Notes: a model not told the origin generated them from the sequence alone. A DNA stretch of 64,000 bases from Bacteroidota bacterium (GCA_040264895.1 JBDQHL010000002.1:12342-76341), one strand, 5' to 3'. Counted from the stretch's first letter, positions 4,013-36,141 are shown. Made by a program: numbers and translations.

Positions 4013-4046
4013 TGTTTGATTCTTGTTTCTGTTGATTTAATTTGGT

Positions 4047-16866: not shown

Positions 16867-16879
16867 ATTTTTTAAATTG

Positions 16880-17075
16880 TGGCGTTGACCTTCGGCTGCT
16901 GAGCTTGTAAAAGCACCGTCTATCTCAACGCTTGCGTTGAGCAGTGTTCGTAGTAGGCCAAATGGTCGGCCTGTCATTGCGAACGAAGTGTGGCAATCTC
17001 TATTGAGACAGCCACGTCCTTTCAGTCCTCGCAGTGACATGCTTTGTGAACTTAGTCCTCTGCGGGCTGATGTGG
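16880..17075. repeat. cluster of intergenic mosaic hairpin repeats
   Basis: 8-bp-arm palindrome CTCAACGC-TT-GCGTTGAG (16924-16941), a long imperfect hairpin at 16973-17038, and a 28-mer at 16973-17000 identical to 18675-18702. Confidence 0.8.
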
Positions 17076-17155
17076 ATGAAATAGTCACAATTTGTAAGTA
17101 ATACAAATTATTCTTAAAATTATGTTTTATTGATAAAACTAGTGGAAAAGTAAAT

Positions 17156-17533
17156 ATGAGTATATTGAATAAACTAATTGGTAATGCAGGAACAGTAAAG
17201 AGTGATGAATTGACTGCAGAACTAGGAGAACTCTTGGTTGAAGGTGAAACAATTGATATAGGTTTCAGAGTATTGCGGGACACATTTGCCTTTACTAACA
17301 AAAGATTAATTATTGTTGATAAACAAGGTATTAGGGGAAAGAAAATAGAATACTTAACAATAGGATACAAAAGTATTTCTCGATTTAGTATTGAGACGAA
17401 TGGCACTTTTAATTTAGATGCTGAATTAAAAATCTGGATTTCGAGTGAACAAAATCCTTCAGTAGTCAAAAAATTCAATAAAAAAGTGAATATATATGAT
17501 GTAAGTAAAGCTCTAACAACTTATACATGCTAA
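17156..17533 (+). CDS. bacterial PH domain (YokE-like/bPH) protein
   Basis: GETIDIGFRVLRDTFAFTNKRLIIVDKQGIRGKKIEYLTIGYKSISRFSIE matches the bPH layout; 125 aa. Confidence 0.75.
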   Translation: MSILNKLIGNAGTVKSDELTAELGELLVEGETIDIGFRVLRDTFAFTNKRLIIVDKQGIRGKKIEYLTIGYKSISRFSIETNGTFNLDAELKIWISSEQNPSVVKKFNKKVNIYDVSKALTTYTC

Positions 17534-17536
17534 TAT

Positions 17537-18511
17537 TTATTTTAAACTATCTCTTGCTTTTTTGATTATTTCGTCATATTCTGATTTAAATTGTTCTACC
17601 AATTGCTTTTCTAGCATACATTCAAGATTATACAAGACTTTTTCCTCTGCTTGATCCTCGATAAATTCTTTACTTGAAATGTCATTAAACCTCGACAGAA
17701 AATCGAATAGAACTATTGATTCATTTTTGGTTAATTCGATTGTTGTTTTGTTTTTATAAAGCGGTTTTTTGGGTTTTCTTTTTTTCATTTCTTCTAGATA
17801 GCCGGCTCCTATTATACCTGTTGGCAGTGCAACTATGCCGATACCTAGCAATGAAATTATGGAGCTAAATAGTATTCCTAAACTGGTAATTGGGTATATG
17901 TCCCCGTAACCCACTGTAGTCAGTGTGGCAACAGCCCACCAAAGAGAAATTAAAATATTAGAAAATACCTCAGGTTGGGAGGAGTTTTCGATATAATACA
18001 TCATAAAACCAGATAAAAATATCAGAAAAAAAGTTATAACTATTGCAGAAATAAGTTCTGGTTTCTTATCAATTATAATCTTTTTTAATAACATTAGGGA
18101 TTCGTTCAAATTTCTAAGTTTGAGCACTTTGAAAAACTTAAACAATCTTAGTATTCTTAGAAACCTTAAATCTATAACAACGAAGAATGGTAATAAAAAA
18201 GGAATTATCGAAAGTAAATCAATTATACCGTATAGTGAGAAAACAAACTTGAAGATAGATTTTAAACGAGAATCTGATGGGTGTGTTAAATCTGAAATAT
18301 ATAATCTCATAGTATATTCTATAACAAAGATTGACATTATAACCTGATTAGTAGACTTTAGAATCGAAGAATATGTAGATTTAATGGAAACTATTGATTC
18401 CAAGACAATTAAAACTATACTCAACAATATAAGTACAAAAATGAAAAGATTAAATTTACTTAAGCTATCATCATCCCTATAAGCAACCCATCTGTATAGA
18501 TATTCTTTCAT
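17537..18511 (-). CDS. voltage-gated (6TM, Kv-like) potassium channel
   Basis: S4-like RFLRILRLFKFFKVLKLR and the selectivity filter TLTTVGYGD. The start is taken at ATG 18511. Confidence 0.85.
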   Translation of the reverse strand: MKEYLYRWVAYRDDDSLSKFNLFIFVLILLSIVLIVLESIVSIKSTYSSILKSTNQVIMSIFVIEYTMRLYISDLTHPSDSRLKSIFKFVFSLYGIIDLLSIIPFLLPFFVVIDLRFLRILRLFKFFKVLKLRNLNESLMLLKKIIIDKKPELISAIVITFFLIFLSGFMMYYIENSSQPEVFSNILISLWWAVATLTTVGYGDIYPITSLGILFSSIISLLGIGIVALPTGIIGAGYLEEMKKRKPKKPLYKNKTTIELTKNESIVLFDFLSRFNDISSKEFIEDQAEEKVLYNLECMLEKQLVEQFKSEYDEIIKKARDSLK

Positions 18512-18548
18512 AATTTCTTTTAAATAAATTCTGCATTCCCCCAATATA

Positions 18549-18584
18549 ACAAAAAAGCAGTACCTAATTAAAGATACTGCTTTT
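18549..18584 (-). terminator. rho-independent terminator, probably ending the hslVU transcript
   Basis: Stem AAGCAGTA (18555-18562) / TACTGCTT (18575-18582), followed on the minus strand by a T-run. Confidence 0.6.
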
Positions 18585-18589
18585 AAAAT

Positions 18590-18850
18590 TCATCAATTGA
18601 CTTTTGTCCCGCACTTGTCCTCCGTTGGGGGAGGTGGCTTTTGCTAAAAGCAAAAGACGGAGGTAGACGAATTAGTCATTGCGAACGAAGTGTGGCAATC
18701 TCATTTGTGAGATAACCACGTCAACAATGCAAGCATTGTCTCCTCGTTATGACATAAATTATCCTCCTCAGTCTGAAACAAGTTCCAGACAGCCCCTCCA
18801 AAAGAGCACAAGAGACGAAAGCATTTCGACTATGCTCAATGCACTTAATC
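18590..18850. repeat. cluster of intergenic mosaic hairpin repeats in the hslU 3' region
   Basis: Nested hairpins (CCTCCGT...ACGGAGG enclosing CTTTTGCT-AAA-AGCAAAAG), the shared 28-mer at 18675-18702, and a TCGAC-N3-GCTC hairpin at 18821-18842. Confidence 0.8.
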
Positions 18851-20215
18851 TTACAATATATACTTACTCAAGTCAGTACTTGTAGCAATCTCGTCCAGAT
18901 GGTCTTTAACAAACTTCTCATCTATCGATAGCTCTGCTTCATCTAAGTCAGCAGGTGCATTGTATAGTATTTCCTCGAGCAATGTAGTGAGTATAGTGTG
19001 CAATCGTCGTGCACCTATATTTGTTATTTCCTCATTCACATCAGCTGCCGTCTTTGCTATTTGGCGAATACCGCTCTCATCAAATTCTAACTGCACGCCT
19101 TCTGTTTCTAACAATGCTTGGTACTGCTTTATCAGTGCATTCTTCGGTATTGTCAATATCTTAACAAAGTCATCTTCGGTAAGTGAGTTTAGTTCTACCC
19201 TAATTGGGAAACGTCCCTGCAATTCAGGAATCAAATCCGATGGTTTAGACACATGGAATGCACCCGAAGCTATGAACAATATGTGGTCAGTATGCACTAT
19301 ACCATGCTTTGTGTTTACAGACGAACCCTCGACTATTGGGAGCAAATCACGCTGTACACCTTCACGCGACACCTCACCGCCACCAGACTTCGAATTGTTT
19401 ACGGCTACCTTGTCAATCTCATCTATGAATACTATACCTGAGTTCTGTGTGCGAGCCAGCGCATCTTTCACAACGGCATCCATATCTATTAACTTATCTG
19501 CTTCTTCTTTTATTAAAAGTGGAAGAGCATCTTTGATTTTTATCTTTCGTTTCTTGCGTTTTTTGGGCATCATATTGCCGAGCATTTCTTGTATGTTTAT
19601 GCCCATATCGTCCATACCCATTGGCCCCATTACTGCCATCCCCGATGGACCTTGTTGAGTCAGTTCTAACTCAATGTCACGATCATCCATAACGCCATTT
19701 TTCAGCATAGCACGGAATTTTTCGCGAGTGTCTTTGTTGTCTTCTTCCTCTGCATCATCATCTTTCACAGGTGGAATAAGTATGTCTAATATTCTATCTT
19801 CGGCGTTCTTCTCTGCCTTAGTTTTTATCTTTTCTTCTTGCTCTTCTTTCACCATTTTCACAGCTGATTCCATCAGGTCACGAATCATAGATTCTACGTC
19901 ACGACCAACGTAGCCAACTTCGGTGAACTTTGTAGCCTCTACTTTAATGAATGGAGCGCCTGCAAGGCGAGCCAATCTACGTGCTATCTCTGTTTTACCA
20001 ACACCAGTTGGACCGATAAGTATAATGTTATTAGGCATTATCTCATCGCGGATTTCCGTTTGTACATTTTGGCGACGCCATCTATTACGAAGAGCAATTG
20101 CAACAGCTTTTTTAGCGTTGTCTTGCCCTATTATATATTTATTAAGTTCTGTGACTATCTGCTTGGGAGTTAATATATCCTGCGGTATAGCCAGTTTTGG
20201 TTCGTTGTTGCTCAT
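18851..20215 (-). CDS. hslU: ATP-dependent protease ATPase subunit HslU
   Basis: 454 aa with Walker [16 protein letters not shown], the I-domain, and the C-terminal DLSKYIL. Confidence 0.95.
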
Positions 20216-20224
20216 TTTTCTCTC

Positions 20225-20767
20225 TTATATTTCTTCTATCGTTAGGTTAGTGTTGGTGTATATACAGATCTCACCAGCTATATTCAGTCCGTTTTCTACT
20301 ATCTCTTTTGCACTCATATCCGTGTTGTTGTATAGTGCTCTGGCAGCCGATAGTGCGTAAGGTCCACCCGAACCAATAGCTAATATGTTGTCATCAGCTT
20401 CTATCACATCGCCAGTTCCGCTTAGTAGCAACCCTTGTGTATCATCCATAGCAATCATCATTGCTTCCAATTTTCTTAGGTATCTGTCCGTTCTCCAGTC
20501 CTTAGCCAGCTCAATTGCTGCACGCTTTAAGTTACCGCTGTGAGTTTCCAGTTTCGATTCGAACCTACCCAATAATGTGAAAGCATCTGCAGTAGAGCCC
20601 GCGAAGCCTACCATTACTTTTCCGTTGTAAAGCTTTCTTATCTTTGCTGTGCTATGCTTCATTATTGTATTGCCAAGCGTTACCTGACCGTCAGCACCGA
20701 GTGCAGTCTTTCCGTTGCGTACTACACCGAGCACGGTGGTCGATCTTATTTTTTTGTCATCGTTCAT
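20225..20767 (-). CDS. hslV: ATP-dependent protease peptidase subunit HslV
   Basis: 180 aa with the [12 protein letters not shown]-terminal Thr nucleophile context; adjacent to hslU. Confidence 0.95.
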
Positions 20768-20871
20768 CGTTTTCTATTTCTATTTTTAATCTATAAAATA
20801 TTCTATTTTTTAACAGAAGTTATTAGACGAGTGTGCAAGCTATTTGTTTAGAATGGGCGTGAAAAAAGTTG

Positions 20872-20883
20872 TGGGGGGGGGGG
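20872..20883. repeat. G12 homopolymer tract in the hslV/groES divergent intergenic region
   Basis: Direct read: t-gggggggggggg-att. Confidence 0.9.
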
Positions 20884-20956
20884 ATTAATACTTTACACTT
20901 ATTTCACACTTTTCCACACTCCCATACAACAAATTAGAGTACAATTCGTATTTTTG

Positions 20957-20983
20957 TTAGCACTCTAATTGTAAGAGTGCTAA
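20957..20983 (+). promoter_or_regulatory. CIRCE operator (HrcA binding site) upstream of groES
   Basis: TTAGCACTC-taattgtaa-GAGTGCTAA is a perfect match to the CIRCE consensus TTAGCACTC-N9-GAGTGCTAA, 57 nt upstream of the groES ATG. Confidence 0.9.
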
Positions 20984-21039
20984 TAGTTTTTAAAATCAAT
21001 TTTTTAATATATTTAATAAGTTAATCGGAGGTTGTTAAA

Positions 21040-21327
21040 ATGGCTTTAACTCCATTGCACGACAGGGTGTTAGTTCGCCCACAAGCACCAGAAGAAAAAA
21101 CAGCTGGTGGAATTATTATACCAGATACTGCAAAAGAAAAACCACAAGAAGGTGTGGTAGTAGCAGTTGGTAACGGTAAAGTAAACGAAGAAGGTAAAGT
21201 ATTGCCTTTGGCTGTGAAAGAAGGAGACAAAGTACTATACGGCAAGTATGGCGGCACTGAAATCAGTGTTGACGGCGAGGACTTACTTATCATGCGTGAG
21301 AGTGACATCTACGCAGTTATTTCATAA
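21040..21327 (+). CDS. groES: co-chaperonin GroES
   Basis: 95 aa, [12 protein letters not shown]...[16 protein letters not shown], with a GGAGG SD. Confidence 0.95.
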
Positions 21328-21344
21328 TTTTAATTAGAATATAA

Positions 21345-23006
<1,662 letters not shown>

Positions 23007-23080
23007 TTCAGACACAACAGCTCTGAACTTGGTCACTGAGCATGTCGATGTGCCCAAAATTCAACCCCAAAACATACAAA

Positions 23081-23110
23081 CCCACTATCATTTCGGTAGA
23101 GGGTTTTTTT
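23081..23110 (+). terminator. candidate rho-independent terminator of groESL
   Basis: CCCACTA...TAGAGGG stem (one mismatch) followed by T7. Confidence 0.55.
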
Positions 23111-23200
23111 GTTGACTATTCTTTACCATTATCAAAAACTCAAAACCTTATTTATTCGTATCTTTGTATAAATTTAGAATAACAAAAAGACAGAAAAGAT

Positions 23201-23962
23201 ATGAATCCGAATGGCGATGTAAACATACAAATTGAAAACAACATAGCTACAATTGAATTTTATCATCCATCGAGCAATGCCTTACCTGGCAATGTGCTAA
23301 GAAAACTAGCAGAAACAATAGATGAAGCTGGTAACAATGATGACGTTAGAGTCATTGTCCTTAAATCAGGTGGTGACAGAGCATTCTGTGCTGGTGCTTC
23401 GTTCGATGAATTAATTGCAATAACAGATTACCCAACTGGAAAAAATTTCTTCATGGGATTCGCCTTAGTTATAAACGCTATTCGCAAATGTCCTAAATTC
23501 GTTATCGCAAGAGTGCAAGGAAAAGCCGTTGGTGGTGGTGTAGGAGTTCTTTCTGCTGCTGACTATACATTGGCTACAAAATACTCTTCAGTCAAACTGA
23601 GTGAGCTTGCTTTGGGTATTGGACCATTTGTTATTGGCCCAGCAGTTGAGCGTAAGGTTGGTAAATCAGCATTTTCACAGATGTCTATTGACTATGATTG
23701 GTATGATGCTGAGTGGGCTAAAAACAGAGGATTCTACGCAGAAGTCTACGATGATATTGAAGCATTAGACAAAGCCGTTGCAGAATTCGCTACTAAGATG
23801 GCGGGCAATAGCCCAGATGCTATGGCAGAGCATAAGAAAGTAACTTGGGCTGGCACTGAAGATTGGGATAAATTATTAGAAAGTAGAGCTGAGATCAGCG
23901 GAAGGTTAGTGCTATCTGATTTTACAAAAAATTACATTAAACAATTTAAAGAAAAGAAATAA
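23201..23962 (+). CDS. enoyl-CoA hydratase/isomerase (crotonase) family protein
   Basis: VIVLKSGGDRAFCAGASFDEL and ARVQGKAVGGGVGV crotonase motifs. Confidence 0.85.
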   Translation: MNPNGDVNIQIENNIATIEFYHPSSNALPGNVLRKLAETIDEAGNNDDVRVIVLKSGGDRAFCAGASFDELIAITDYPTGKNFFMGFALVINAIRKCPKFVIARVQGKAVGGGVGVLSAADYTLATKYSSVKLSELALGIGPFVIGPAVERKVGKSAFSQMSIDYDWYDAEWAKNRGFYAEVYDDIEALDKAVAEFATKMAGNSPDAMAEHKKVTWAGTEDWDKLLESRAEISGRLVLSDFTKNYIKQFKEKK

Positions 23963-24624
23963 TGTACCTCTTCTTCGATACTGAGACAAGTGGTTTACCC
24001 AAAAACTATGATGCACCGATTTCTGATTTGGAGAATTGGCCATACATAGTACAAATTGCATGGTTAGAGCAAGATAAATACGGTAATGACATATCCACTG
24101 GTAACTACTATGTAACTCCATCTGGGTTTGACATTAGTCCTGATTCTGAGAAAATACACCGTATTAGTAAAGAAAAAGCAACGGATTTGGGCTACCCAAT
24201 TACAGACGTGTTAGAAGTTTTCATTGCTATAATTAAGAAATCGCAATTCATAGTAGCTCACAATGTTGAGTTTGACTACAATGTACTTAGTGCAGAGTTT
24301 GCACGCCATTACATAAAAAGTGACATAGCCGAGAAGAAGAAGATTTGTACTATGCAAGAAACGATAGAGTTTTGCAACTTGCCTGGCAGCAATGGTTTGA
24401 AATATCCCCGTTTGTCGGAACTTTACTACAAGCTATTTGCCAAAAATTTTGATAATGCTCATGACGCCAAAGCGGACATAGATGCAACTGCAGAAGCTTT
24501 TTGGGCGCTGAAGCAACGCGGTGTTATCGATGAATTCAACCTGAGAACTGAACAAATAATTGGGGTTAAAAAGAAGCAAGAAGAAGAAACAGACGATGAT
24601 GATTCGAGTATGTCGTTGTTTTAA
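23962..24624 (+). CDS. DEDDh 3'-5' exonuclease (DnaQ/epsilon-like) with an acidic tail
   Basis: FFDTETSGLP (ExoI), AHNVEFDYNVL (ExoII) and HDAKADIDATAEAF (ExoIII). Confidence 0.8.
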   Translation: MYLFFDTETSGLPKNYDAPISDLENWPYIVQIAWLEQDKYGNDISTGNYYVTPSGFDISPDSEKIHRISKEKATDLGYPITDVLEVFIAIIKKSQFIVAHNVEFDYNVLSAEFARHYIKSDIAEKKKICTMQETIEFCNLPGSNGLKYPRLSELYYKLFAKNFDNAHDAKADIDATAEAFWALKQRGVIDEFNLRTEQIIGVKKKQEEETDDDDSSMSLF

Positions 24625-24637
24625 TAGTAGATTTATT

Positions 24638-24862
24638 CTAACCACTCTCATCTAGTATTTCTAAATCACTTCCTGAGATTGAATCCTTTTTAACCTTCTT
24701 ACTTTGGTTTTTCCTCAGAAATTCTTGTTGTGCAGGCGTAAAAAGATTTTCTTTATCAATATAATTATTAATAACTTTTATAACAGATAGTAAGAACTCT
24801 TCATCGTCAGTATCTTTAACTATACTTATAATTTCTTCCTTTATTCTATCTACTTCAGTCAT
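24638..24862 (-). CDS. hypothetical small protein
   Basis: 74-aa ORF convergent with the exonuclease gene; no family recognised. Confidence 0.4.
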   Translation of the reverse strand: MTEVDRIKEEIISIVKDTDDEEFLLSVIKVINNYIDKENLFTPAQQEFLRKNQSKKVKKDSISGSDLEILDESG

Positions 24863-24949
24863 TATAATTCCTTACATTAATGAATTAAAATATTAGTTTT
24901 GTATTCTAATATAACAAAATATCTGAATATATAAACGTATTATAAAATT

Positions 24950-26122
24950 ATGGCAAGAATAGCAATAGGTTTATCAGGCGGGGTTGACTCTGCAGTATCA
25001 GCGCACTTACTTAAAGAGCAAGGGCATGATGTTATTGCAATGTTTATGCAAAATTGGGATGACCCAACTGGCACACTTCGAGGTGATTGTGAGTGGGAAG
25101 AAGACTTTGAAATTGCTCAGCTGGTTGCACGCCATTTAGATATACCTATTCACCATATTAATCTAAGCAATGAGTACAAATCGCGTGTAGCTGATTATAT
25201 GTTTGCAGAATACGAAGCTGGCAGAACACCCAATCCAGATGTACTTTGCAATCGAGAGATAAAGTGGGATGTCTTCCTAAAGGCAGCACTCGAATACGAT
25301 GTAGATTTGGTAGCAACTGGACACTACTGCCAAAAAGATGAGGTGGATGGTCAATATCGTTTGCTAATGGGTAAGGATAGCAATAAAGATCAGAGCTACT
25401 TCCTGTGTCAGCTTGACCAAGAAATGCTTCGCTATGCACACTTCCCTATTGGTGGACTTTCGAAACCAGAAGTTAGAGAAATAGCCAAGTCGCTAAAATT
25501 ACCAAATTATGATAAAAAGGACTCGCAAGGTCTATGCTTTATCGGTAAGATTGACCTGCCTACGTTCTTAAAACAAAAGTTAGAACCCAAGCGAGGCGAC
25601 GTAATTGAGATTCCTGACAAAGAGCACAATTGGAACATAGGTGAAAACCTATTAGACCAATGTATGCTCGATGAAGTCTGCTATCCAGTTCCTATGTGGG
25701 CTAGCGATGGCCATAAATTAGGACAACATGATGGTGCTCATTTCTTCACTGTAGGGCAAAGACGTGGACTTGCAATAGGTGGAACTAAGTTGCCTCTATT
25801 CGTAATAGGAACCGATGTTAAAAATAATATAATATACACTGGACAAGGCGAAAACCACTATGCACTAAATCGTCCTGGCATTCACATTAAGGCTAGCGAA
25901 GTACATTGGGTTCGTCCATCGCAAGAGATGAAAATAGACGAAATTCGCGAATACGATGTTAAAATTCGTTACCGACAACCCAATCAAAAAGCAAAACTAA
26001 TCCGTAAGGAAAACGGTGTATATATTATATTCGATGAGCTACAGAAAGGAGTTGCAGTAGGTCAATTCGCTGTTTGGTATGATGGTGATGAGCTTATTGG
26101 CTCAGGGGTTATCTTCGCATAA
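24950..26122 (+). CDS. mnmA: tRNA 2-thiouridine(34) synthase MnmA
   Basis: PP-loop GLSGGVDSAV, catalytic-Cys context NPDVLCNREIKW, and DSQGLCFIG. Confidence 0.92.
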   Translation: MARIAIGLSGGVDSAVSAHLLKEQGHDVIAMFMQNWDDPTGTLRGDCEWEEDFEIAQLVARHLDIPIHHINLSNEYKSRVADYMFAEYEAGRTPNPDVLCNREIKWDVFLKAALEYDVDLVATGHYCQKDEVDGQYRLLMGKDSNKDQSYFLCQLDQEMLRYAHFPIGGLSKPEVREIAKSLKLPNYDKKDSQGLCFIGKIDLPTFLKQKLEPKRGDVIEIPDKEHNWNIGENLLDQCMLDEVCYPVPMWASDGHKLGQHDGAHFFTVGQRRGLAIGGTKLPLFVIGTDVKNNIIYTGQGENHYALNRPGIHIKASEVHWVRPSQEMKIDEIREYDVKIRYRQPNQKAKLIRKENGVYIIFDELQKGVAVGQFAVWYDGDELIGSGVIFA

Positions 26123-26211
26123 TTGCCTTACTCTTTTATTCTGATTTTTATAATGCTTAAGTTTGTAAGTGAACAATCCCACAAGTTGGGATTTTTCTAT
26201 TTTAATTATAT

Positions 26212-26820: not shown

Positions 26821-26850
26821 AAAAAGCCCAACTAGTACTAGCTGGGCTTG
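26820..26850. terminator. hairpin terminator between convergent genes
   Basis: AAGCCCA-A-CTAGTACTAG-C-TGGGCTT, with an A-run on the plus strand that reads as a T-run on the minus strand. Confidence 0.6.
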
Positions 26851-26869
26851 GTAAAAGATTGTTAGAATT

Positions 26870-27969
26870 TTACTTAATTTTGGTAAGGATGATAAAAGAT
26901 TCTGTTGTTACATCAAAGTCGTCATCTTCTTTTTTCATTTGCAAATCAAAAGTTCCACTGGAAGATGTCTCGAATATGCCTTCTATCGTAACTCTTGCGT
27001 TAAACCCATTGTAAAATTGAAAGTCCTCTATAAATTCATTAGAGTTAATTACTTGCTTATAATCTAAATTATCGTCAAACGCCTCTATCATAACAACACC
27101 TGACGATGGTAAACCGTTTAATCTTATTGAAGGTCTTCTCTCCGTTCCAGTTGGAGCGAGTATCAAAATCCCCTTAATTTTATATACACTATTCGCATCA
27201 AGAGTAGCTGTAATATCAGTGATATTTACATAAGTTGTTGTACTTACCGTCTGGTCAGATGACTTGGTTAATACCGTTACCTCTGGCAGTCTGCGCCACC
27301 GCCGCCGCCACCAGTGATTATCTTACCAGTGTTATCTAGTTGTATATTTTGTGTGCCGCCGCCAGCTAAACCGGGCATAGTAATGCCAGTTGTTTTAGCT
27401 TCTAATGCAGTAGCGCCATCTATTGCTATCACTCCCTTGTTATTAACTTCATCATAACTAAGAGTCATTTCCGTACCACCAGTCATACCACCATCTGGCC
27501 CTACGTGAAGTGTATTACTCCCTACGTAAGCATCTTCCCACCTATTATCATCTTGACCAAGTGAGCTACTAGTGCTTGGTGGGCTGAAGTCCCCAGAATT
27601 ATTAAAGACAGTCGTGCTACCTTGCATCATCAATAGTTGGTCAACTCTCTGTTGTGAAAACAAAGTGCCACCAACATATATATCTACGACCACATTCGTA
27701 TTTATAGAGCTAGCACTAACGCTAGACAAATCTCCATTTGCACCAAGATGGTCAGCTAGTTCTACTATTACTATGCCATTATCATTGGGCGTCAAATTAT
27801 TGGTTTCACTTATGAAAAGTGTTGAGTTAGTAGAATAGTCTTTAATTTCAGCTCTCACACTTTGTGAAGAAGTATTTGTAGTGTAATAAGCAACCTTAAT
27901 AGGTTCTAATGATAGTGATGTAGATACTGAAAACAATATAGTTATAACTATTAGTAAAAGCTTTTTCAT
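26870..27969 (-). pseudogene. secreted tail-fibre-like protein split by a frameshift next to a GGC/GGT tract
   Basis: The 230-aa ORF (signal peptide; LGQDDNRWEDAYVGSNTLHVG) ends GGGGGGADCQR-TAA at 27277. A second frame is open from about 27322 down to 26870 (EVTVLTKSSDQTVSTTTYVNITDITATLDANSVYKIKG...) and has no ATG/GTG before the TTG at 27166. Confidence 0.5.
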
Positions 27970-28128
27970 AAATCCTCATAATTAACTTCAAATATTATGA
28001 CGGAAATAAGCAATTTGTATATTTTTCACAAGAACTACATAAACTGAAACTTTATACAAATACTATATTTTTAAATTAGTCTCACTTATTTCTTAGTTTC
28101 GAAATACTAAAAATTAACAATCACAATT

Positions 28129-29391
28129 ATGACAAAATCAGCCGAAGAAGCAGTAAAGCATATAAAAAGTAATGACAATGTTTTCATTCATTCAGCTACT
28201 GCAGTTCCTACTTTGTTAGTAAATGCAATGAGCGAACGACACAGTGAACTAAAGGATGTAAGTATCTACCAAATCCACACCGAAGGACCTGCGCCTTATT
28301 GTAATCAAGGTATGGAGGATTCATTCCTTGTTAAGGCAATGTTTGTTGGCTCTAACACACGTAGTTCTATACGAAGCGGAAGAAATAGCTATATACCTAT
28401 TTTTCTAAGTGAAGCTCCAAAACTCTTTAGAAAAGGGACTATTCCAATCGACGTTGCTTTGATTACTGTTTCCCCACCGGACAGACACGGCTTTTGTTCT
28501 CTTGGTACATCAGTAGATATTTCTTTAGCAGCAGTCGAATCAGCAAAATTCGTAATTGCCCAGGTTAATGATAAGATGCCAAGAACTCATGGCGATGGAA
28601 TTATTCACGTAAATGATATTGACATACAAGTAGAAGGTAATAGGGATATATATGAAATTCATTATTCAGAACTTTCTGATGAGAACAAATCAATAGGAAG
28701 AAATATAGCAGAATTGATTGATGACGGCTCCACATTACAAATGGGTATAGGGGCTATCCCAAATGCAGTATTATCTTTCTTAGGTAACCATAAAAATCTT
28801 GGAATTCATTCTGAAATGTTCTCTGATGGAATATTGCCATTAGTTGAGAATGGAGTGATTAATGGAATTCACAAAAAGAAGCACCCAGGCAAAATTGTAT
28901 CTTCGTTTGTGGTTGGCAGCAAAAAGCTCTATGACTTTATTGATGACAATCCTGTTTTACATATGTTGGATTCTGATTATGTCAATAGCCCAAACGTAAT
29001 TCAAAAAAATCCAAAAGTAGTAGCAATCAATAGTGCTATCGAGATTGATTTAACTGGTCAGGTATGTGCTGACTCAATAGGTTCAAAAATTTATTCTGGT
29101 GTTGGTGGGCAAATGGATTTCATCCGTGGTGCTTCACTTTCAGAAGGCGGTAAACCTATAATCGCTCTGAGCTCAGTTACTAAAACAGGAGAATCTAAGA
29201 TTGTGCCTTTCTTAAAACAGGGTGCAGGTGTGGTTACCACAAGAGCCCACATACACTATGTAGTTACCGAATATGGTGTAGCTAACTTGTATGGTAAAAC
29301 TATTGACGAAAGAATAAATGAGTTGATTGGAATCGCTCACCCAATGCACAGGGAAGAACTTGAAAAGTCGAAAAAGCTATTGTTTTGTTAA
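28129..29391 (+). CDS. acetyl-CoA hydrolase/transferase family protein (4-hydroxybutyrate CoA-transferase-like)
   Basis: 420 aa with LQMGIGAIPNAV, SEMFSDG and GVGGQMDF motifs. Confidence 0.88.
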   Translation: MTKSAEEAVKHIKSNDNVFIHSATAVPTLLVNAMSERHSELKDVSIYQIHTEGPAPYCNQGMEDSFLVKAMFVGSNTRSSIRSGRNSYIPIFLSEAPKLFRKGTIPIDVALITVSPPDRHGFCSLGTSVDISLAAVESAKFVIAQVNDKMPRTHGDGIIHVNDIDIQVEGNRDIYEIHYSELSDENKSIGRNIAELIDDGSTLQMGIGAIPNAVLSFLGNHKNLGIHSEMFSDGILPLVENGVINGIHKKKHPGKIVSSFVVGSKKLYDFIDDNPVLHMLDSDYVNSPNVIQKNPKVVAINSAIEIDLTGQVCADSIGSKIYSGVGGQMDFIRGASLSEGGKPIIALSSVTKTGESKIVPFLKQGAGVVTTRAHIHYVVTEYGVANLYGKTIDERINELIGIAHPMHREELEKSKKLLFC

Positions 29392-29402
29392 TTGGGTTTA
29401 TT

Positions 29403-30092
29403 TTAAGCTACCACACAGTGGTAAATATAAGATACACCAAAGAATTGAGGATAACCCTTTACACTTTTAAATCTATCAGTACTCATTAAAAGATCAACAA
29501 ACTCCTTTCCATAAGGAAAGTTATCAATAGTTGTTGGCAGATAAGTATAAGCATCTTCATTATTAATAAGTATTTTACCAAGCTTTGGCATTAATCTTCT
29601 GCTATAAAACTCATAGATTGATTTTAAAAAACCATTAGGTTTTCCGGTTTCTAAAATCATTAACTTTCCACCTGGCTTAGTTACTCTAGTTAGCTCTGCT
29701 AGACCACGATGTAGGTCGTCAACATTTCTGATACCAAATGATATACTAACAATGTCAAATGTATTATCATCATAATGAAGATTCATAATGTCGGCTAATT
29801 CTGCCTCTACTGTAACGTCTTTCTTAAAAGCTTTCATTGGTAATTTTTTGAGCATATCAGAACAAAAGTCTGTTGCCAAAACTTTACCTTCTTTACCGGT
29901 TACTTTTTTGAATTCAATAGCCAAATCACCTGTACCCGAAGCAGTATCTAAAATATTGTCATCTGACTTTGCACCAGATAGCTTTACCAATCTCTTACGC
30001 CACAAATGATGCAAACCGAATGACATTACATTATTCATGTAGTCGTAGTCATTAGATAAATTAGCGAACATATTTTTTACTTCTTCACTCAT
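29403..30092 (-). CDS. ubiE: demethylmenaquinone/ubiquinone C-methyltransferase
   Basis: MFANLSNDYDYMNNVMSFGLHHLWRKRL and LDTASGTGDLAIEF. Confidence 0.88.
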   Translation of the reverse strand: MSEEVKNMFANLSNDYDYMNNVMSFGLHHLWRKRLVKLSGAKSDDNILDTASGTGDLAIEFKKVTGKEGKVLATDFCSDMLKKLPMKAFKKDVTVEAELADIMNLHYDDNTFDIVSISFGIRNVDDLHRGLAELTRVTKPGGKLMILETGKPNGFLKSIYEFYSRRLMPKLGKILINNEDAYTYLPTTIDNFPYGKEFVDLLMSTDRFKSVKGYPQFFGVSYIYHCVVA

Positions 30093-30153
30093 TGCTATAT
30101 CAGATTATTTTATTACTTTTATCAAACCTTTCACTCACAAATATAATATATAT

Positions 30154-31407
30154 ATGAACAAACATCTACCTCTTTATTCTAACTATATATCAACTCGTAA
30201 AATAACACAAAGCTTATGTGCTCCTCTCATAGAAGAAGATTACACTACTCAAGTGGATTGGTTTGTAAGCCCTCCCAAGTGGCATCTGGCACATACAACT
30301 TGGTTTTTTGAGACTTTTATTCTCATACCCAATTTGAAAGAATATAAGGTATTTGATGAAAAGTTCTCTTATTTGTTCAATAGTTACTACTTATCTAAAG
30401 GTGACCAATTAACGAAATCGGAAAGAGGAGTTCTTGCTAGACCACAACTTAATAAGATTATGGATTATAGAAAGCAAGTTGATTTAGCTATTGAGCAGTT
30501 ACTAGGCAGTTGCTCTGAGTTAGAATATTCAAAACTAGAGTCACTGATGCATATTGGTATAAATCACGAACAACAACATCAAGAGTTGTTGCTTATGGAT
30601 ATAAAATACAACTATGCTTCTAGTAGCTTTAAGCCTAACTACGCTGATTCAAATTTAAAGTTTGATACAGATATATTGCCCCAAGAATTTCTAAAAGTAG
30701 ACGAAGGAGTTTACTCTGTAGGATTCGAAGGTGATGAATTTCATTTTGACAATGAAGTACCAAGACATAAACAGTACGTACATGATTGCCATATATCTAA
30801 TAGATTAGTAACCAATAAAGAATATCTTGGTTTTATAACTGATGGCGGGTACAAAGATCCCCTTCTTTGGTTGTCTGATGGTTGGGACTGGAAACAAAAA
30901 AACAACATTAAGAAGCCGCTGTACTGGAATATTAATGATAATGGCTGTGATTACTTTACTTTACATGGACTGAGAGAGTTGGATCCTTCTGCACCTGTTA
31001 GTCATATTTCATTTTACGAAGCCAATGCTTTTGCTAAATGGGCTGGCTACAGATTGCCGACAGAATTCGAATGGGAAGTAGCTTGTAATAATTATAGTGC
31101 TGATGATTTGGAAAAAGCCAACCTATTAGATAATAGATTTATGGCATTGCCGAATACAAGCGCTCCACAATGTATTGGTAATTTGTGGGTTTGGACTGAA
31201 AGTGCCTACTTGCCATATCCTAATTATTTACAAGATAAGGGTGCATTGGGTGAATACAATGGAAAGTTTATGGTAAATCAGAAAGTTCTGAGGGGTGGCA
31301 GTTTCGCTACTCAGAGAAGTCACATAAGGGCAACATATAGAAATTTCTATCACCCTGAATCGAGATGGTGCTTCAATGGAATCAGATTAGCTAAAAATAA
31401 TGACTAA
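30154..31407 (+). CDS. egtB: EgtB-like sulfoxide synthase (DinB_2 plus FGE-sulfatase domains)
   Basis: DinB-type metal site HIGINHEQQHQELLLMD and a C-terminal FGE-like domain (NLWVWTESAYLPYP...LRGGSFAT). Confidence 0.75.
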   Translation: MNKHLPLYSNYISTRKITQSLCAPLIEEDYTTQVDWFVSPPKWHLAHTTWFFETFILIPNLKEYKVFDEKFSYLFNSYYLSKGDQLTKSERGVLARPQLNKIMDYRKQVDLAIEQLLGSCSELEYSKLESLMHIGINHEQQHQELLLMDIKYNYASSSFKPNYADSNLKFDTDILPQEFLKVDEGVYSVGFEGDEFHFDNEVPRHKQYVHDCHISNRLVTNKEYLGFITDGGYKDPLLWLSDGWDWKQKNNIKKPLYWNINDNGCDYFTLHGLRELDPSAPVSHISFYEANAFAKWAGYRLPTEFEWEVACNNYSADDLEKANLLDNRFMALPNTSAPQCIGNLWVWTESAYLPYPNYLQDKGALGEYNGKFMVNQKVLRGGSFATQRSHIRATYRNFYHPESRWCFNGIRLAKNND

Positions 31408-31694
31408 TTGTCAGGGGAGTGACTATTTGACACCTGTCGTTGTGTCATATCTTTCTTCATAGATTTGATACCAAAGTTGATACCATAGATAAATATATAA
31501 ATGAACCCGATAATACCTGCTGCTTCTAATATATTTATGCATTGCATTTTGAAGGTGTCGAATATCATTTTGTTACAGACGTTCTCTAAAGTAAACGACA
31601 TAAATAGAAAAAGCCCGCCAATAAAGAATATAAAAAATATTGTGCGGGCAATTTTTTCAATTGTAGTTTTCGTTCTGTTTTCGTTAGCTTTCAT
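31404..31694 (-). CDS. small two-TM membrane protein downstream of an ECF sigma factor
   Basis: 96 aa with two hydrophobic helices; overlaps the sigma gene by 11 nt. No zf-HC2 anti-sigma motif. Confidence 0.45.
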   Translation of the reverse strand: MKANENRTKTTIEKIARTIFFIFFIGGLFLFMSFTLENVCNKMIFDTFKMQCINILEAAGIIGFIYIFIYGINFGIKSMKKDMTQRQVSNSHSPDN

Positions 31695-32241
31695 TGAGTG
31701 AAGTGTATAAACCGTTTAATTTCTTTCTTAAATGCAGAACAGCATATCTCTTTCTTGCTAAAAGAGTATTTATGTTTACGCCTGTTTCTTCTGACATTTC
31801 TCTAAACGAAATACCTTCAAATTCATTTTTAACAAACACATTTCTTTGCTCATCTGGTAATTCTTTTAGTCCATCTTGTACAGAATCCCATATTGTTTTT
31901 CTAAGCAAATCGTCTTCAGGGCTAGCACCTTCGTCTTCTATGAAGTATTCGAAAGTATCCATTCCTTCTTCTTGTTGCTTCGGTGTTTGTAAATCCGAAA
32001 ACGCCTCTGCGCGTTTCTTTCTGTATGAATCAATAATTCTATTTCTTACTGCAGTGAACACCCAAGATGCTATATTTTCTATTGGTTTTTGAACATTTTT
32101 AGATGCTGCTAAAACATTTGTGAATACATCTTGTAGGATATCTTCTGCTTCTTCCTGCGATCTTACTCTTTTTCTGATAAAACCTAGGAACTTCTTTCTA
32201 TCGTTCTTGAACAACTCTTCTATTTGTAATGCTAAATCCAT
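31684..32241 (-). CDS. ECF-type sigma-70 family RNA polymerase sigma factor
   Basis: Region 2 (EAEDILQDVFTNV...WVFTAVRNRIIDSYRKK) and region 4 (ISFREMSEETGVNINTLLARKRYAVLHLRKKL). Confidence 0.88.
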   Translation of the reverse strand: MDLALQIEELFKNDRKKFLGFIRKRVRSQEEAEDILQDVFTNVLAASKNVQKPIENIASWVFTAVRNRIIDSYRKKRAEAFSDLQTPKQQEEGMDTFEYFIEDEGASPEDDLLRKTIWDSVQDGLKELPDEQRNVFVKNEFEGISFREMSEETGVNINTLLARKRYAVLHLRKKLNGLYTSLNES

Positions 32242-32448
32242 CTTATAAATCCTCGTTTTTCTTCAATTATTTTAAATAAGACTATTTTACTCTTATTTAA
32301 CCTCAATAACTATCTAAACGCAAAAAAGTTTCACTTTTTATAAACATTTTTTTAATTTTTGTTAAATTTTTTTATTTCACTGACATAATGTCAAGTAAAT
32401 ATAGTCTTAATCTGTATAATATATACGTGGGAATACCGTGCCAACAAT

Positions 32449-34047
32449 ATGATAAATCACAAAGCCACAATCTCTGCACTTGCTCACGAACTCTCTATTA
32501 CAATAGGATACGAGATAGTAGAAATATATCAGCAGTCCAAAGGAGTGTTAATAATAAGATTAGAAAATAATTCTGAAACTATATTTTTAGAATTTTCTAA
32601 TAATCAACCATATGATAGATTATTTGCTAGGGTACTACACAAGAGAGCAAAAGCAAATACAATAGATTTATTTCAATTCTTAGTTGGTCAAAGGATTTCT
32701 AATATAGTACAAGTCAACGAAGATAGGGTTTTGTGTATAAGCACTCAGGGCTATTTACTATTCTTTAAGCTATTTGGGCATAACCAATCTGATTTGGTAA
32801 TTACAAATCACAAGCAAAAAATAGTAGCTACTTATGCTGCTACCGAAAATGTAGAAGATCAGTTTGAGCTAGAAGAAAAAAGACCAACCTTACCTATAGA
32901 TATGCCTGATGAAATAAAAGTAGAAAAGGCAATAAGAAGTAGTAGTTATTATTTGGGTAGGCACTATACTAATGATTTCATAGCAAAGAGTGAATTAGAT
33001 AAAAACAAAACACTTGGTAATATTAACAAACAGGAATTAACAAATACTCTGACAGAATATTACCTCACATTGGCTAGGTCAAGTAATTCATATGTCTATC
33101 AATTAACGGATAATGACTATCTTGTGAGTTTGATTGAGCTAAATGGCTACGAACTACACCAAAAGTTTGAAACGGTAAGTGAGGGTATTAGAACAAAATT
33201 TATTCGTGAGATTAGCCGCAAATCATTAATAGAATTACAAAAGAAAGCCAACACTATCTTAACGAGAATAATAGCTAAAGATGAAAAAGCAATAAATAGA
33301 ATAAAGCAGCTAGATGATGGAAAGGAAAAATCCGATATGTATCGTCACTTTGCTGAGCTTATGCTCTCGCAACCTAACCCGAGAGAAAAACACGGAAAAA
33401 AAATAGATCTGAAAGACTGGGACGGTTCAAGTATAACTATTCCCTTGGACGAGAAATTAGACTTGGTTGATAATGCAGAGAAATATTTCAAAAAATCAAG
33501 CTCTATACTTAAGGAGCGAAAAATCGCGAAACAAAAGCTACCAGAAATAGAAAAAAACTATGAGCTAGTAAAAGAGCTAAAAAGCAAAATAGATTCAGCT
33601 GATAATGTAAAAATTGTAGAAGATATAATTTCTGAAAACAAAGCAATATTTGGAAGTATAATGAACAAGAGTAACAAAGAAGAAAGAGAAGATAAATATA
33701 AGAAGTTTGAACTTAGTGAAAACTATACTCTATACGTTGGTAAAAACGCCAAGAATAATGATGAACTAACGCTCAGGTTTGCAAAACCTAATGATATTTG
33801 GTTGCACGCTAGGGGAGTTGGCGGTTCGCATTGTGTTATCCGAGTAGATGGAAGAAAACCAAGCAAAGGCATAATAAAAGAAGCGGCAGCAATAGCTGCT
33901 TATTATTCTAAAGCAAAAAGCTCTAACTTGGCTCCAGTGGCATACACTGAAAAGAAATATGTTAGTAAACCAAAGGGAGCTAATCCTGGAGCGGTTGTAG
34001 TTAGGCGTGAAGATGTAGTAATGGTAGAACCTGGCTTACCAGAATAA
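32449..34047 (+). CDS. NFACT family protein (RqcH/FbpA-like, with a DUF814/NFACT-R domain)
   Basis: 532 aa. The C-terminal YTLYVGKNAKNNDELTLRFAKPNDIWLHARGVGGSHCVIR is the NFACT-R signature. Confidence 0.8.
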   Translation: MINHKATISALAHELSITIGYEIVEIYQQSKGVLIIRLENNSETIFLEFSNNQPYDRLFARVLHKRAKANTIDLFQFLVGQRISNIVQVNEDRVLCISTQGYLLFFKLFGHNQSDLVITNHKQKIVATYAATENVEDQFELEEKRPTLPIDMPDEIKVEKAIRSSSYYLGRHYTNDFIAKSELDKNKTLGNINKQELTNTLTEYYLTLARSSNSYVYQLTDNDYLVSLIELNGYELHQKFETVSEGIRTKFIREISRKSLIELQKKANTILTRIIAKDEKAINRIKQLDDGKEKSDMYRHFAELMLSQPNPREKHGKKIDLKDWDGSSITIPLDEKLDLVDNAEKYFKKSSSILKERKIAKQKLPEIEKNYELVKELKSKIDSADNVKIVEDIISENKAIFGSIMNKSNKEEREDKYKKFELSENYTLYVGKNAKNNDELTLRFAKPNDIWLHARGVGGSHCVIRVDGRKPSKGIIKEAAAIAAYYSKAKSSNLAPVAYTEKKYVSKPKGANPGAVVVRREDVVMVEPGLPE

Positions 34048-34109
34048 AAAAAGTGAGCTGTTATAGAATACCTCCCTCCATACTTAAAGTCTTTTCTATC
34101 TGAGATTAC

Positions 34110-34736
34110 TTATTTTTTGAACTGGATGATGTTATTGTTTATTGTCATTTCAGAAGGATTGAAATTACTAGCAATCCATTGAAAAGTTCTATTTTTATAA
34201 ATGAAGACATGAGTAAAATCATTCTTATAATACCAATTATCGAAGTCAACATCATTAGTGTATATATTCGTTTTACAGTACAATCTGCCACCTGTGTTTA
34301 GCATATTGAACAATCTGCTAAACTCTTCAAAAGGGTGATGGAAATGCTCTATTACCTCGCAAGCATAGATATAATCGTATTTGTTATTTAACAGGTCGGG
34401 GTTATCATAATAAATAGGGTCATACTGTTTTACCACGAAACCATTATCACTTAGCTGTTTGTGGACAGCAGAGCCATTGCCAGCACCAAAGTCAAGACCA
34501 ATATGTTCTGCAGTTTGGTTAGCAATAAGTAAATCAGTCAGCGGCTTAACAAAATCTTGATAACCCTCATCTTCAGGATCATTTTGGTGCTTTAGGTATC
34601 TTTCCTTTTCTTCTTGATAGCTTGGCAGCTTTGATTTAGGACGGAACAACCCCTCACAAGTATTACATTCATAGAATATATCCTTGTAGAAGGAAGTTCC
34701 TTCTGACTTACACATTGGGCATTTTTCTATTTTCAT
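34110..34736 (-). CDS. class I SAM-dependent methyltransferase with an N-terminal Cys4 zinc ribbon
   Basis: CPMCKS...CNTC followed by GLDFGAGNGSAV (motif I). Confidence 0.75.
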   Translation of the reverse strand: MKIEKCPMCKSEGTSFYKDIFYECNTCEGLFRPKSKLPSYQEEKERYLKHQNDPEDEGYQDFVKPLTDLLIANQTAEHIGLDFGAGNGSAVHKQLSDNGFVVKQYDPIYYDNPDLLNNKYDYIYACEVIEHFHHPFEEFSRLFNMLNTGGRLYCKTNIYTNDVDFDNWYYKNDFTHVFIYKNRTFQWIASNFNPSEMTINNNIIQFKK

Positions 34737-34742
34737 ATTCTA

Positions 34743-35846
34743 TCACTCCCTGTTGACCCACAAGTCAATTATTTGTGATATTTCATCGGATTCTTTCATT
34801 GCTAATATTTGTAAGTTTATATCTCTTCTAATTGGACTTTTCGTAGGAAATACGAACCCATAGTTTTGTTTGTATAGCCCATTGGTAGTAAGAGTAAATT
34901 GCTTTTTATCCAACTTGTTGAATATATATTCCAAAGGAATAATATCATATACAATAGCATCAATTTTACCACTATTCAATAACTTCAGTGCCTCTTCAAT
35001 ATCTGGAACTTCAATTGGCTTTCCACCATTTGCTCTTATATTATCAGAAAGTCTGGAAATAGAAGGTATAGCTACTTTTTTCTCTTTATCTATATCGTTT
35101 AAGCTAGTTATAGTCTGGCTATTGCTATTGCTTGCTGTAAGTGTGCTAGCTATACCTGCTACGAATGACGTTGCCATAATTAATGATATTATCATCCAAG
35201 CACCTAGTATAACTTTCCCAGCAGCAGTTTTAGGTGAGTAATCTCCGTATCCGACAGTGGTCATGGTAACAATCGCTAACCATACACCTGTTCCAATTCC
35301 TTGTAATGGTTTGTCTCTAAATTCCTTCAGCTCTCCTTTTCGCTCTACTAACCATACCAAAAAACCTACTAAAGTTAGTATAAGGACAAGCCCAAAAACA
35401 GCGTAAAGAAAATTGATACTAAAAAATGGAGCCAACCTATCCCATATAGTAACTTCAACTACTGGAGCTAGTATAGCAAGCTCTGTGTTGTAGTATGGCT
35501 GGGAGAACGAGATCTGTTTTGCTCTTTCTAGGTTGATAGTAATAGGACCGATGAGTAAATCAATTTTGTTTGAAGTTACTGCATTTATTCCTTCCTTTAC
35601 AGAATTGTAATGTATGTATTTAAAGTCATAGTTGAGCTCGAAAGCGATATCTTTCCAAATATCAATTATTATACCTTCTGGATTACCTGTATGATAAAGA
35701 AATGGAACCGAGCCAGAATACCCTACTTTAAGTTGTTGTCTAGTCTGTAAGTTAGCACTACTGTCTATTTCTAATTCTTGACCAATTGAGGGTGTCAAAA
35801 AACATAGAAATAGTAATGATATTATTATATATTTATTTTTACTCAT
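34743..35846 (-). CDS. GluR0-like ligand-gated potassium channel (substrate-binding-protein domain split by an M1-P-M2 pore)
   Basis: S1 lobe, a TM helix, the pore TMTTVGYGDYSP, a second TM helix, then the S2 lobe (KIDAIVYDIIPLEY...YGFVFP). Confidence 0.8.
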   Translation of the reverse strand: MSKNKYIIISLLFLCFLTPSIGQELEIDSSANLQTRQQLKVGYSGSVPFLYHTGNPEGIIIDIWKDIAFELNYDFKYIHYNSVKEGINAVTSNKIDLLIGPITINLERAKQISFSQPYYNTELAILAPVVEVTIWDRLAPFFSINFLYAVFGLVLILTLVGFLVWLVERKGELKEFRDKPLQGIGTGVWLAIVTMTTVGYGDYSPKTAAGKVILGAWMIISLIMATSFVAGIASTLTASNSNSQTITSLNDIDKEKKVAIPSISRLSDNIRANGGKPIEVPDIEEALKLLNSGKIDAIVYDIIPLEYIFNKLDKKQFTLTTNGLYKQNYGFVFPTKSPIRRDINLQILAMKESDEISQIIDLWVNRE

Positions 35847-36058
35847 AGTTATAAACATACTAAATTTTTATTTGATGATAAAAAGTCTTCTACTTTAGTC
35901 TCATTAGCCTTCATAAATTCTCCTATTTGATATATAACGATGATAAAATAGAGATTTTTTCACTTTTACCCAAAATTATTTATGATTCTAAAGATTCAAG
36001 AATTGGAAATTGAAGTTATTTCCACTTTTATAATATAATAACGGTTCTCTGTTTTGAG

Positions 36059-36138
36059 ATGTATTCATATCGACTACGCTCTGTGTAAACAATACATATC
36101 TACTGTGCTAATTTCAAGCATTTCGACAAGCTCAATGC
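36059..36138 (+). repeat. two tandem hairpin repeats with a TCGAC-N2-3-GCTC loop
   Basis: ATGTATT-catATCGACtacGCTCtgtgtaaac-AATACAT (36059-36097) and GCATT-TCGACaaGCTC-AATGC (36118-36138). Confidence 0.8.
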
Positions 36139-36141
36139 ACA

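Follow-up and report, generated by a model that had tools for sequence, protein, structure and literature searches.

Do the small hairpins that stand directly behind stop codons in a Bacteroidota genome act at the level of the messenger RNA, or are they repeat DNA that is carried along in the transcripts? The question is raised by a stretch of 64,000 nucleotides from a Bacteroidota bacterium (GCA_040264895.1, JBDQHL010000002.1:12342-76341), hereafter the window, which has a G+C content of 35.7% and in which a preliminary description had counted four clear copies and one degenerate copy of a hairpin with a conserved TCGAC-N2-3-GCTC loop. All five strings quoted in that description were found exactly where it had placed them, and, judged by sequence comparison, the window hairpins are true copies of a hairpin repeat family, two of them intact and three decayed. 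With a probability of about 0.55, we regard them as a small palindromic DNA repeat, comparable to repetitive extragenic palindromic (REP) sequences and miniature inverted-repeat transposable elements (MITEs), which piles up between stop codon and terminator and is passively transcribed. Written on the strand of the respective upstream gene, on which GAGC...GTCGA is read at every copy, the five window hairpins are:

16897-16915 (+): doubtful or decayed copy, TGCT-GAGC-TT-GTAAA-AGCA, with two core mismatches and a 4-bp stem, 30 nt past the stop codon of a type IX secretion system (T9SS) cargo gene
18821-18842 (-): intact hairpin, GCATT-GAGC-ATA-GTCGA-AATGC on the hslU mRNA strand, 8 nt past the hslU stop codon
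23034-23052 (+): eroded copy 27 nt past the groEL stop codon, CACT-GAGC-AT-GTCGA-TGTG, in which T faces T where the closing pair should be
36059-36097 (-): eroded copy, with the core GAGC-GTA-GTCGA whole at 36070-36081, the inner stem broken and the outer stem ATGTATT/AATACAT left
36118-36138 (-): intact hairpin, GCATT-GAGC-TT-GTCGA-AATGC, 3 nt past the stop codon of an open reading frame (ORF) of 63 amino acids

All window copies are intergenic and lie 3-30 nt 3' of a stop codon, so that the placement just behind the named genes was correct. A covariance model (R1) was built from 59 family members of other organisms together with the two intact window copies, and the whole window was scanned with the filters switched off. 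The intact copies, which match R1 partly by construction since both are in its seed, scored 30.9 bits (18819-18844(-), E = 1.1e-5) and 32.7 bits (36116-36140(-), E = 3.5e-6). The other three scored 14.0 bits (23031-23055(+), E = 0.35), 11.7 bits (16894-16918(+), E = 1.4) and, with the loop only matching, 9.1 bits (36070-36081(-), E = 7), and all other scores in the window were noise. The initial count of four clear copies therefore holds for two, the remaining three being eroded. The exact core TCGAC-N2-GCTC was found at 23038-23048(-) and 36123-36133(+) and TCGAC-N3-GCTC at 18826-18837(+) and 36070-36081(+), each spacing having a mean of 0.13 in shuffles of the 64-kb window; with both spacings pooled, four occurrences stand against about 0.26 expected in 64 kb. 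The loop core GAGC-N2-3-GTCGA is exact in these four copies and deviates at two positions in the copy at 16897, which lies among other small repeat modules clustered there. The two intact copies share the stem GCATT/AATGC, are identical at 19 of 21-22 positions, lie in similar flanks (aaGT-GCATT...AATGC-TT and atGT-GCATT...AATGC-TT) and are the only ones of the five with at least five contiguous base pairs and a T-A closing pair. The copies at 36059 and 36118 form a direct pair and not an inverted one. Two further copies, at 4346-4370(+) (E = 4.5e-4) and 4396-4421(+) (E = 0.013), were detected between two plus-strand genes in the 10-kb flank upstream of the window (L325), on the same 469-kb contig of an estuary metagenome, so that the element is present in multiple copies in the window and its flank.

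Across genomes, the family consensus combines a stem of 5-7 bp, closed by T-A or at times by C-G, with the loop GAGC-(GNA or YT)-G-N-CGA, as read from the aligned sequences; the loop middle is GNA (GAA, GTA, GGA or GCA) or YT (TT or CT) and the unit is about 21-24 nt long. When 185,579 reference genomes (596 Gb) were scanned on both strands with GCATTGAGC-N2-3-GTCGAAATGC (20 fixed bases, two gap lengths), at least 120 matches were obtained, as compared with about two expected by chance according to our own arithmetic. The matches listed come from more than 10 phyla, with several isolates included, and comprise Cyanobacteria, Alpha-, Beta- and Gammaproteobacteria, Bacteroidota, Chlorobiota, Chloroflexota, Gemmatimonadota, Fibrobacterota, Spirochaetota, Verrucomicrobiota, Nitrospinota, Latescibacterota and others. 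Among them are the cyanobacterial and proteobacterial taxa Leptolyngbya, Nostoc, Calothrix, Nodosilinea, Sphingomonas, Allosphingosinicella, Comamonadaceae, Nitrosomonadaceae and Rhodocyclaceae, as well as Kordia, Fluviicola, Flavobacterium, Pedobacter, Brumimicrobium, Lewinella, Prevotella, Akkermansia and Anaerolineae, and the G+C content of the carrier loci spans 32-70%. In IMG/VR contigs carrying the GC-rich form CTGAGCTTGTCGAAG, at least two further flanking positions were paired in 81 of the 133 listed, where about eight were expected.

The stem sequence varies while its pairing is kept. Beyond the ascertained cores, 147 more core occurrences were found in the genome loci and a stem of at least 4 bp encloses 81 of them, whereas four scrambled-core controls occurred 11-56 times each with no more than two such stems. 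In 99 distinct model matches the five inner pairs are nearly always paired, and cells in which both sides had changed numbered 132 against 46.7 in shuffles (none of 500 reached 132), while slid controls collapsed; as the underlying alignment was fitted to the model and holds ascertained sequences, it is the 81 of 147 stems that constitute the non-circular evidence. Altogether 44 different 5-nt stems were counted. The variable stems and conserved loop noted at the outset are thus borne out across genomes by these stems and their covariation, although within the window it is the eroded copies that supply the variation. The T of GTCGA is the only position altered in 27 of 40 loop variants with a single mismatch, and other core positions are each affected at most twice.

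A search of Rfam 15 at the gathering threshold gave no match in the window and nothing beyond tRNA in 18 carrier loci, and ranking by E-value yielded chance-level matches only for the window and carrier loci; a check against Rfam, as had been advised, hence finds the hairpin in none of its families. A search of 8.3 million full texts with DNA strings and with peptides of spurious ORFs returned only unrelated primers and no paper on the element. We know of no name for it, and the translations of its GC-rich form are familiar as spurious hypothetical proteins. On this sequence evidence the family is very large and apparently unnamed.

That the loop is invariant and the stem is not would be understandable if the loop were itself folded. 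We propose a tandem-GA plus mini-hairpin fold for d/r(GCATTGAGCGAAGTCGAAATGC), in which the loop would be read as T-GA-G-C-[GNA]-G-(T)-C-GA-A: tandem sheared G.A/A.G pairs would stack over the closing T-A pair, above them would follow a G-C pair and then a C-G pair closing a GNA triloop, and the T would be bulged out. This tentative structure fits the observations that only the T varies freely, that all 3-nt middles are GNA and that the loop of a second hairpin family, described below, is bulge-less.

According to the preliminary description, the orientation of the hairpin relative to the transcript was always the same. All five source-genome loci indeed read in sense within the approximately 84 kb covered; four of these five generated the hypothesis, and the sole independent locus, L325, agrees with a chance probability of 0.5. 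The orientation scan was made across other genomes and rests on crude ORF calls, with three antisense cases checked against Pfam. Here, 69 copies were co-oriented with both flanking genes and 74 were anti-oriented, the low-GC singletons were divided 11 to 11, and a bias was absent in every distance bin from the stop codons. The hairpins thus form a true family, but the uniform orientation that was to be tabulated as a check did not extend to it. The Pfam-verified antisense copies lie in L181 of the Bacteroidota isolate Brumimicrobium glaciale, next to DNA_alkylation and DUF6090 genes, in L234, where the flanking genes encode MnmE and an MmeI-type methylase, and in L177, beside the gene of an FkbM methyltransferase. 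With respect to position, family copies occupy convergent contexts in 68 cases and divergent ones in 32, and of 309 adjacencies to a gene end, 170 fall no further than 100 nt from the stop codon. Loci selected for one copy contained about 90 further copies per Mb, as against two marginal matches (approximately 0-3 copies per Mb) in the 699 kb surrounding 80 metagenome hslU genes that had been taken without such selection.

Family hairpins frequently enter composite structures. In proteobacteria, 21 examples were found of doublets of 55-91 nt with the organization CCGTTCG-hairpin-spacer-inverted hairpin-CGAACGG, the arm stems of which nearly always differ. Such doublets (L135, L157, L161, L163, L164, L180, L193, L199, L206, L221 and others) have mutually complementary loops in their arms, and in some the spacer holds another, third hairpin, so that the outline resembles a cloverleaf. 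In sphingomonads, one hairpin is nested in place of the mini-hairpin of another; this composite had no match among PLSDB plasmids. Cyanobacteria harbour a MITE-like unit of about 150 nt with the ends TAAGTAG...CTACTTA and two inverted family hairpins (L125, L142, L150, L151, L168, L185, L214, L222, L242 and other loci), and in L150, L168 and L242 other small elements are inserted within the hairpin loop. Prophage-like IMG/VR contigs carry hairpins at variable places between head genes. Four tandem hairpin copies with a 45-nt period and identical spacers were observed in a Lewinella metagenome-assembled genome (MAG; L147, 1102-1262); this array was considered as a clustered regularly interspaced short palindromic repeat (CRISPR) locus and rejected, being a tandem repeat with identical spacers.

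At the window's own loci the hairpins and their surroundings turn over. The closest reference genome among the matches listed is the MAG 'Chlorobiota bacterium EC_MBin.42', with 86-92% DNA identity to the window. The relative L137 keeps the hslU hairpin, with CT for ATA in the loop middle, as well as the next module and the terminator, and between these its mosaic consists of different small hairpins and is about 34 nt shorter than that of the window; we count these swapped modules as turnover. L137, moreover, has two copies (3736-4120 and 4807-5108) of a 217-nt 3' cassette of hairpin modules and terminator, which are 97% identical and stand in sense behind two different genes. In three metagenome relatives (L245-L247, HslU about 90% identical at the amino acid level) the mosaic is absent and a plain terminator follows within 40-60 nt of the stop codon, and in a related organism of run X18 a joint corresponding to 18583->18857 skips the hslU mosaic. 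The pair at 36059-36138 is unchanged in same-species strains; in the related species of run X18, unrelated sequence follows the 63-amino-acid gene and the hairpin is absent from the 26 nt past the stop codon. RNA runs sharing groEL words with the window stem from other organisms (groEL 90-95% identical), in which divergence begins directly after the stop codon. A separate 2.8-kb indel was also observed, in which the window region 14287-17075, comprising the T9SS cargo gene and the repeat cluster downstream of it, corresponds to about 146 nt at L137 1067-1213 in the closest reference genome named above.

A family that is multi-copy, patchy, turning over, tolerated at 3' ends, neutral in orientation and given to doublets and nesting argues for small palindromic repeat DNA of the kind represented by REP sequences, REPINs (REP doublets forming hairpins), MITEs and small dispersed repeats (SDRs), and this behaviour argues that the agent conserving the loop acts on a hairpin of either strand, in DNA or on both strands equally, and speaks against an RNA signal tied to one strand. 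We envisage that a machinery recognizing the hairpin form, most simply as single-stranded DNA in the manner of REP/RAYT (REP-associated tyrosine transposase) or IS200/IS605-type systems, copies or mobilizes the hairpin. Copies do pile up, together with other hairpin modules, at sites that tolerate insertion, such as the stretch from a stop codon to its terminator or intergenic DNA elsewhere near gene 3' ends, and in the source genome they would ride passively in the 3' untranslated regions (UTRs) of transcripts. The uniform sense orientation seen here would be due to small-sample chance or to a lineage-specific filter, for example 3' cassettes that carry the terminator; duplication of whole cassettes including the terminator, which was seen in L137 only, would lead to sense orientation even if the hairpin itself had no role.

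Several observations weigh against this interpretation. Clustering all-against-all of the 1,678 ORFs of 240 loci in search of a linked enzyme recovered only phage head proteins and housekeeping families; no protein family recurs beside the hairpins in these loci, and no mobilizing enzyme was found there. Nor was an insertion or excision captured that showed precise ends or a duplicated target. The GCATT stem occurs in phyla of 32-70% G+C, which is hard to explain for a vertically inherited selfish element; a shared host factor or horizontal spread may account for it. All five source-genome loci are in sense, two copies follow a stop codon at a distance of 3-8 nt, L137 still has the hslU copy, the orientation counts depend on ORF calls of which three antisense cases were Pfam-checked, and the folded loop is not predicted by standard energy models.

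REP sequences and REPINs are the closest known relatives in behaviour. Like these short extragenic imperfect palindromes of 20-40 nt (PMC3733652, PMC3116915), the hairpins are enriched near 3' ends between convergent or co-directional genes, frequently form inverted doublets with a short spacer, with a conserved head CCGTTCG in the GC-rich forms, are co-transcribed with upstream genes and join mosaic clusters as in bacterial interspersed mosaic elements. REP sequences are defined by a GTAG or CGTC tag, a conserved stem and a short loop of 2-5 nt (PMC3733652). In contrast, the 11-12 nt loop of the present family is conserved with an invariant 9-base core and its stem is free, the window copies carry neither tag and are singlets or a direct pair, inverted doublets being found in other phyla, and the unit spans many phyla whereas REP families are species- or genus-specific. 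A match to a known REP family, which had been named as a possible objection, is therefore seen in behaviour only: the hairpin family is not a REP family as defined. No RAYT or Y1_Tnp gene was present among the Pfam calls for the called genes in the roughly 84 kb of source genome.

The SDRs of Nostocaceae described by Elhai and colleagues in 2008 are said to be 21-27 nt long and to share a secondary structure with compensatory changes, and reportedly occur nested in their own copies and within minitransposons. Nesting and MITE-like residence are likewise found at the cyanobacterial loci of our family. SDRs are reported to be confined to Nostocaceae (PMC5861425), whereas the present family spans many phyla. 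The likeness to MITEs lies in the cyanobacterial TAAGTAG...CTACTTA units and the proteobacterial CCGTTCG/CGAACGG doublets; the window copies differ in having no terminal inverted repeats, target duplication or parent insertion sequence element, and at 21-22 nt the unit is far smaller. In kind, the family belongs with the small dispersed palindromic repeats.

The genes and further elements around the window hairpins are as follows:

14371-16866 (+): T9SS cargo gene (Por_Secre_tail, T9SS-sorted), upstream of the copy at 16897
16973-17000 (+): GTCATTGCGAACGAAGTGTGGCAATCTC module (family D7), in the same cluster as the copy at 16897, sense to local transcription
18553-18584 (-): intrinsic terminator ending the hslVU transcript region, -16.4 kcal/mol, z -6.0, followed by a U-run; conserved in L137
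18585-18850 (-): small-hairpin mosaic of about 270 nt from the hslU stop codon to the terminator, with the family hairpin as its first module
18675-18702 (+): second copy of the GTCATTGCGAACGAAGTGTGGCAATCTC module, in the hslU 3' cluster, antisense to hslU
18851-20215 (-): hslU, beside an HslV-type proteasome subunit gene, upstream of the copy at 18821
21366-23006 (+): groEL, with groES, upstream of the copy at 23034
about 23081-23110 (+): groESL terminator of the intrinsic type, placed 3' of the eroded copy, with a fold of -14.8 kcal/mol (z -3.9) and a U7 run behind it
36142-36333 (-): 63-amino-acid ORF, conserved in a related species, upstream of the copies at 36118 and 36059

The two terminators qualify the statement that T-runs are missing: this is correct at the hairpins themselves, but canonical terminators follow downstream at 18553-18584 and about 23081-23110. 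The hairpins resemble intrinsic terminators in following shortly after a stop codon. They differ by an AT-rich 5-bp stem, an 11-12 nt loop and the lack of a U-tract, and their folding energies of -3.6 to -4.5 kcal/mol compare with -15 to -16 kcal/mol for the real ones downstream. A terminator role was considered and rejected, as there is no U-tract, the stem is not GC-rich and the real terminators lie further 3'.

The GTCATTGCGAACGAAGTGTGGCAATCTC module is a second small hairpin repeat with the stem ATTGC/GCAAT, found at the two window positions given above and in L325 near 18404(-). Its antisense copy at 18675 indicates that the mosaic modules are not all co-oriented. Cross-phylum relatives such as GTCATTGCGAGCGAAGCGAAGCAATCC occur at sphingomonad loci and on a viral contig, both of which also carry the TCGAC hairpin. 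The loop of this second family, GAGC-GNA-GC-GAA, is free of the bulge; at the position of the proposed upper pair G-C is exchanged for A-T in some members, and one member has the pair extended (GCC-GAA-GGC). The likeness of this loop to that of the first family suggests, at the sequence level, a superfamily of both hairpin families.

Other small features were noted in the same region. Mini-palindromes centred on GCTTGC, CTCAACGCTTGCGTTGAG and CAATGCTTGCATTG, lie inside the same repeat clusters at 16924-16941 and 18725-18738 and share this centre with Pseudomonas REP cores such as GGGAGCTTGCTCCC. Stop-free ORFs run through the clusters at 16852-17478(-) (208 amino acids) and 18679-18885(+) (68 amino acids) and gave no match with Pfam; both are spurious, and the first masks a real bPH-domain gene at 17156-17533. 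An exact CIRCE (controlling inverted repeat of chaperone expression) operator, TTAGCACTC-N9-GAGTGCTAA, is located upstream of groES at 20957-20983 and represents an ordinary HrcA-type heat-shock control site.

A more far-reaching reading, which we regard as conceivable though less probable than not, is that the hairpin is a pan-bacterial structure-specific module, composed of the tandem G.A pairs and the C(GNA)G mini-hairpin on a free stem, which would be recognized by a widespread machinery. If so, it would be the smallest autonomous-looking mobile unit described, 21-22 nt in length and entering loops of its own kind and other repeats, or alternatively the site bound by a conserved factor with specificity for hairpins of DNA or RNA. 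That such a module has no name would be due to its size, which is below the reach of repeat finders, and to the spurious ORFs in which it mostly lies concealed.

Three other explanations have to be set against that of passively transcribed repeat DNA. The first, which we hold to be unlikely, is the function originally proposed, by which the hairpin would be a cis element of the mRNA, its loop GAGC..GUCGA being read in sense and the 3' UTR hairpin binding a protein or marking a site of processing or stability. The sense orientation at the four window loci and L325, the closeness of both intact copies to the stop codons, the retention of the hslU copy in L137 with the loop middle alone changed, and a conserved loop that suggests recognition by some factor would all agree with this. 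So would an estuary metatranscriptome contig (depth 2.5, 100% identity) which covers 18763-18969, reaching from the 3' end of hslU across the hairpin to 58 nt beyond it, and is consistent with read-through transcription across the hairpin, DNA contamination being possible; this contig, however, passes through the hairpin with no 3' end there. Moreover, the orientation of the family is random at all distances from stop codons and includes verified antisense cases, the frequent inverted doublets and nesting are unexpected for a strand-specific RNA signal, close relatives have the terminator alone in the orthologous hslU 3' UTRs, and three of the five window copies are decaying. The window hairpins also fold weakly, with z-scores of about 0, and the energies from nearest-neighbour models did not go beyond the range of -1.6 to -7 kcal/mol, again at z-scores near zero, so that they should be poor exonuclease barriers; protection of the mRNA 3' end by thermodynamic stability was rejected, as the folds are no better than those of shuffled sequence. 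Function at the RNA level in the 3' UTR is thus not supported by the family-wide data, and in this lineage we consider it unlikely.

Slightly less likely still is a binding or structural site in DNA for a conserved host factor acting on hairpin or cruciform DNA, for instance in replication, repair or supercoiling, and kept by selection. The recurrence of one 21-22 nt sequence across over 10 phyla and a G+C range of 32-70%, the neutral orientation relative to genes and the lack of a linked transposase in the 240 loci would be in keeping with such a site, and a free stem with a fixed loop fits recognition of an extruded hairpin. Yet its distribution is patchy, with approximately 0-3 copies per Mb at the 80 unselected loci and none at the same sites in close relatives, the copies decay, the doublets, nesting and MITE-like residence look like proliferation, and there is no known candidate factor. 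Finally, that the window copies are unrelated short palindromes which share the 9-base core by chance is very improbable, for although three of the five score E = 0.35 to 7 with R1, four exact cores stand against 0.26 expected, two copies are identical at 19 of 21-22 positions with E of about 1e-5 to 1e-6, and the third- and fourth-best R1 matches of the window are sites flagged at the outset, all of them intergenic; chance is effectively refuted for the two intact copies and possible for 16897-16915.

The hairpins in the 3' UTRs of the window are most likely passengers and not regulators. Repeats of this type swell intergenic regions, seed spurious ORFs such as those at 16852-17478 and 18679-18885 and break metagenome assemblies, and a model of hairpin repeats would improve annotation. 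A 21-22 nt hairpin with an invariant loop is shared, in identical sequence, by genera as far apart as Nostoc, Sphingomonas and Kordia. If one machinery recognizes it, this would be a new and very widespread system of hairpin recognition or mobilization; if there is no single machinery, the family would be a remarkable example of small selfish DNA that has converged or spread horizontally.

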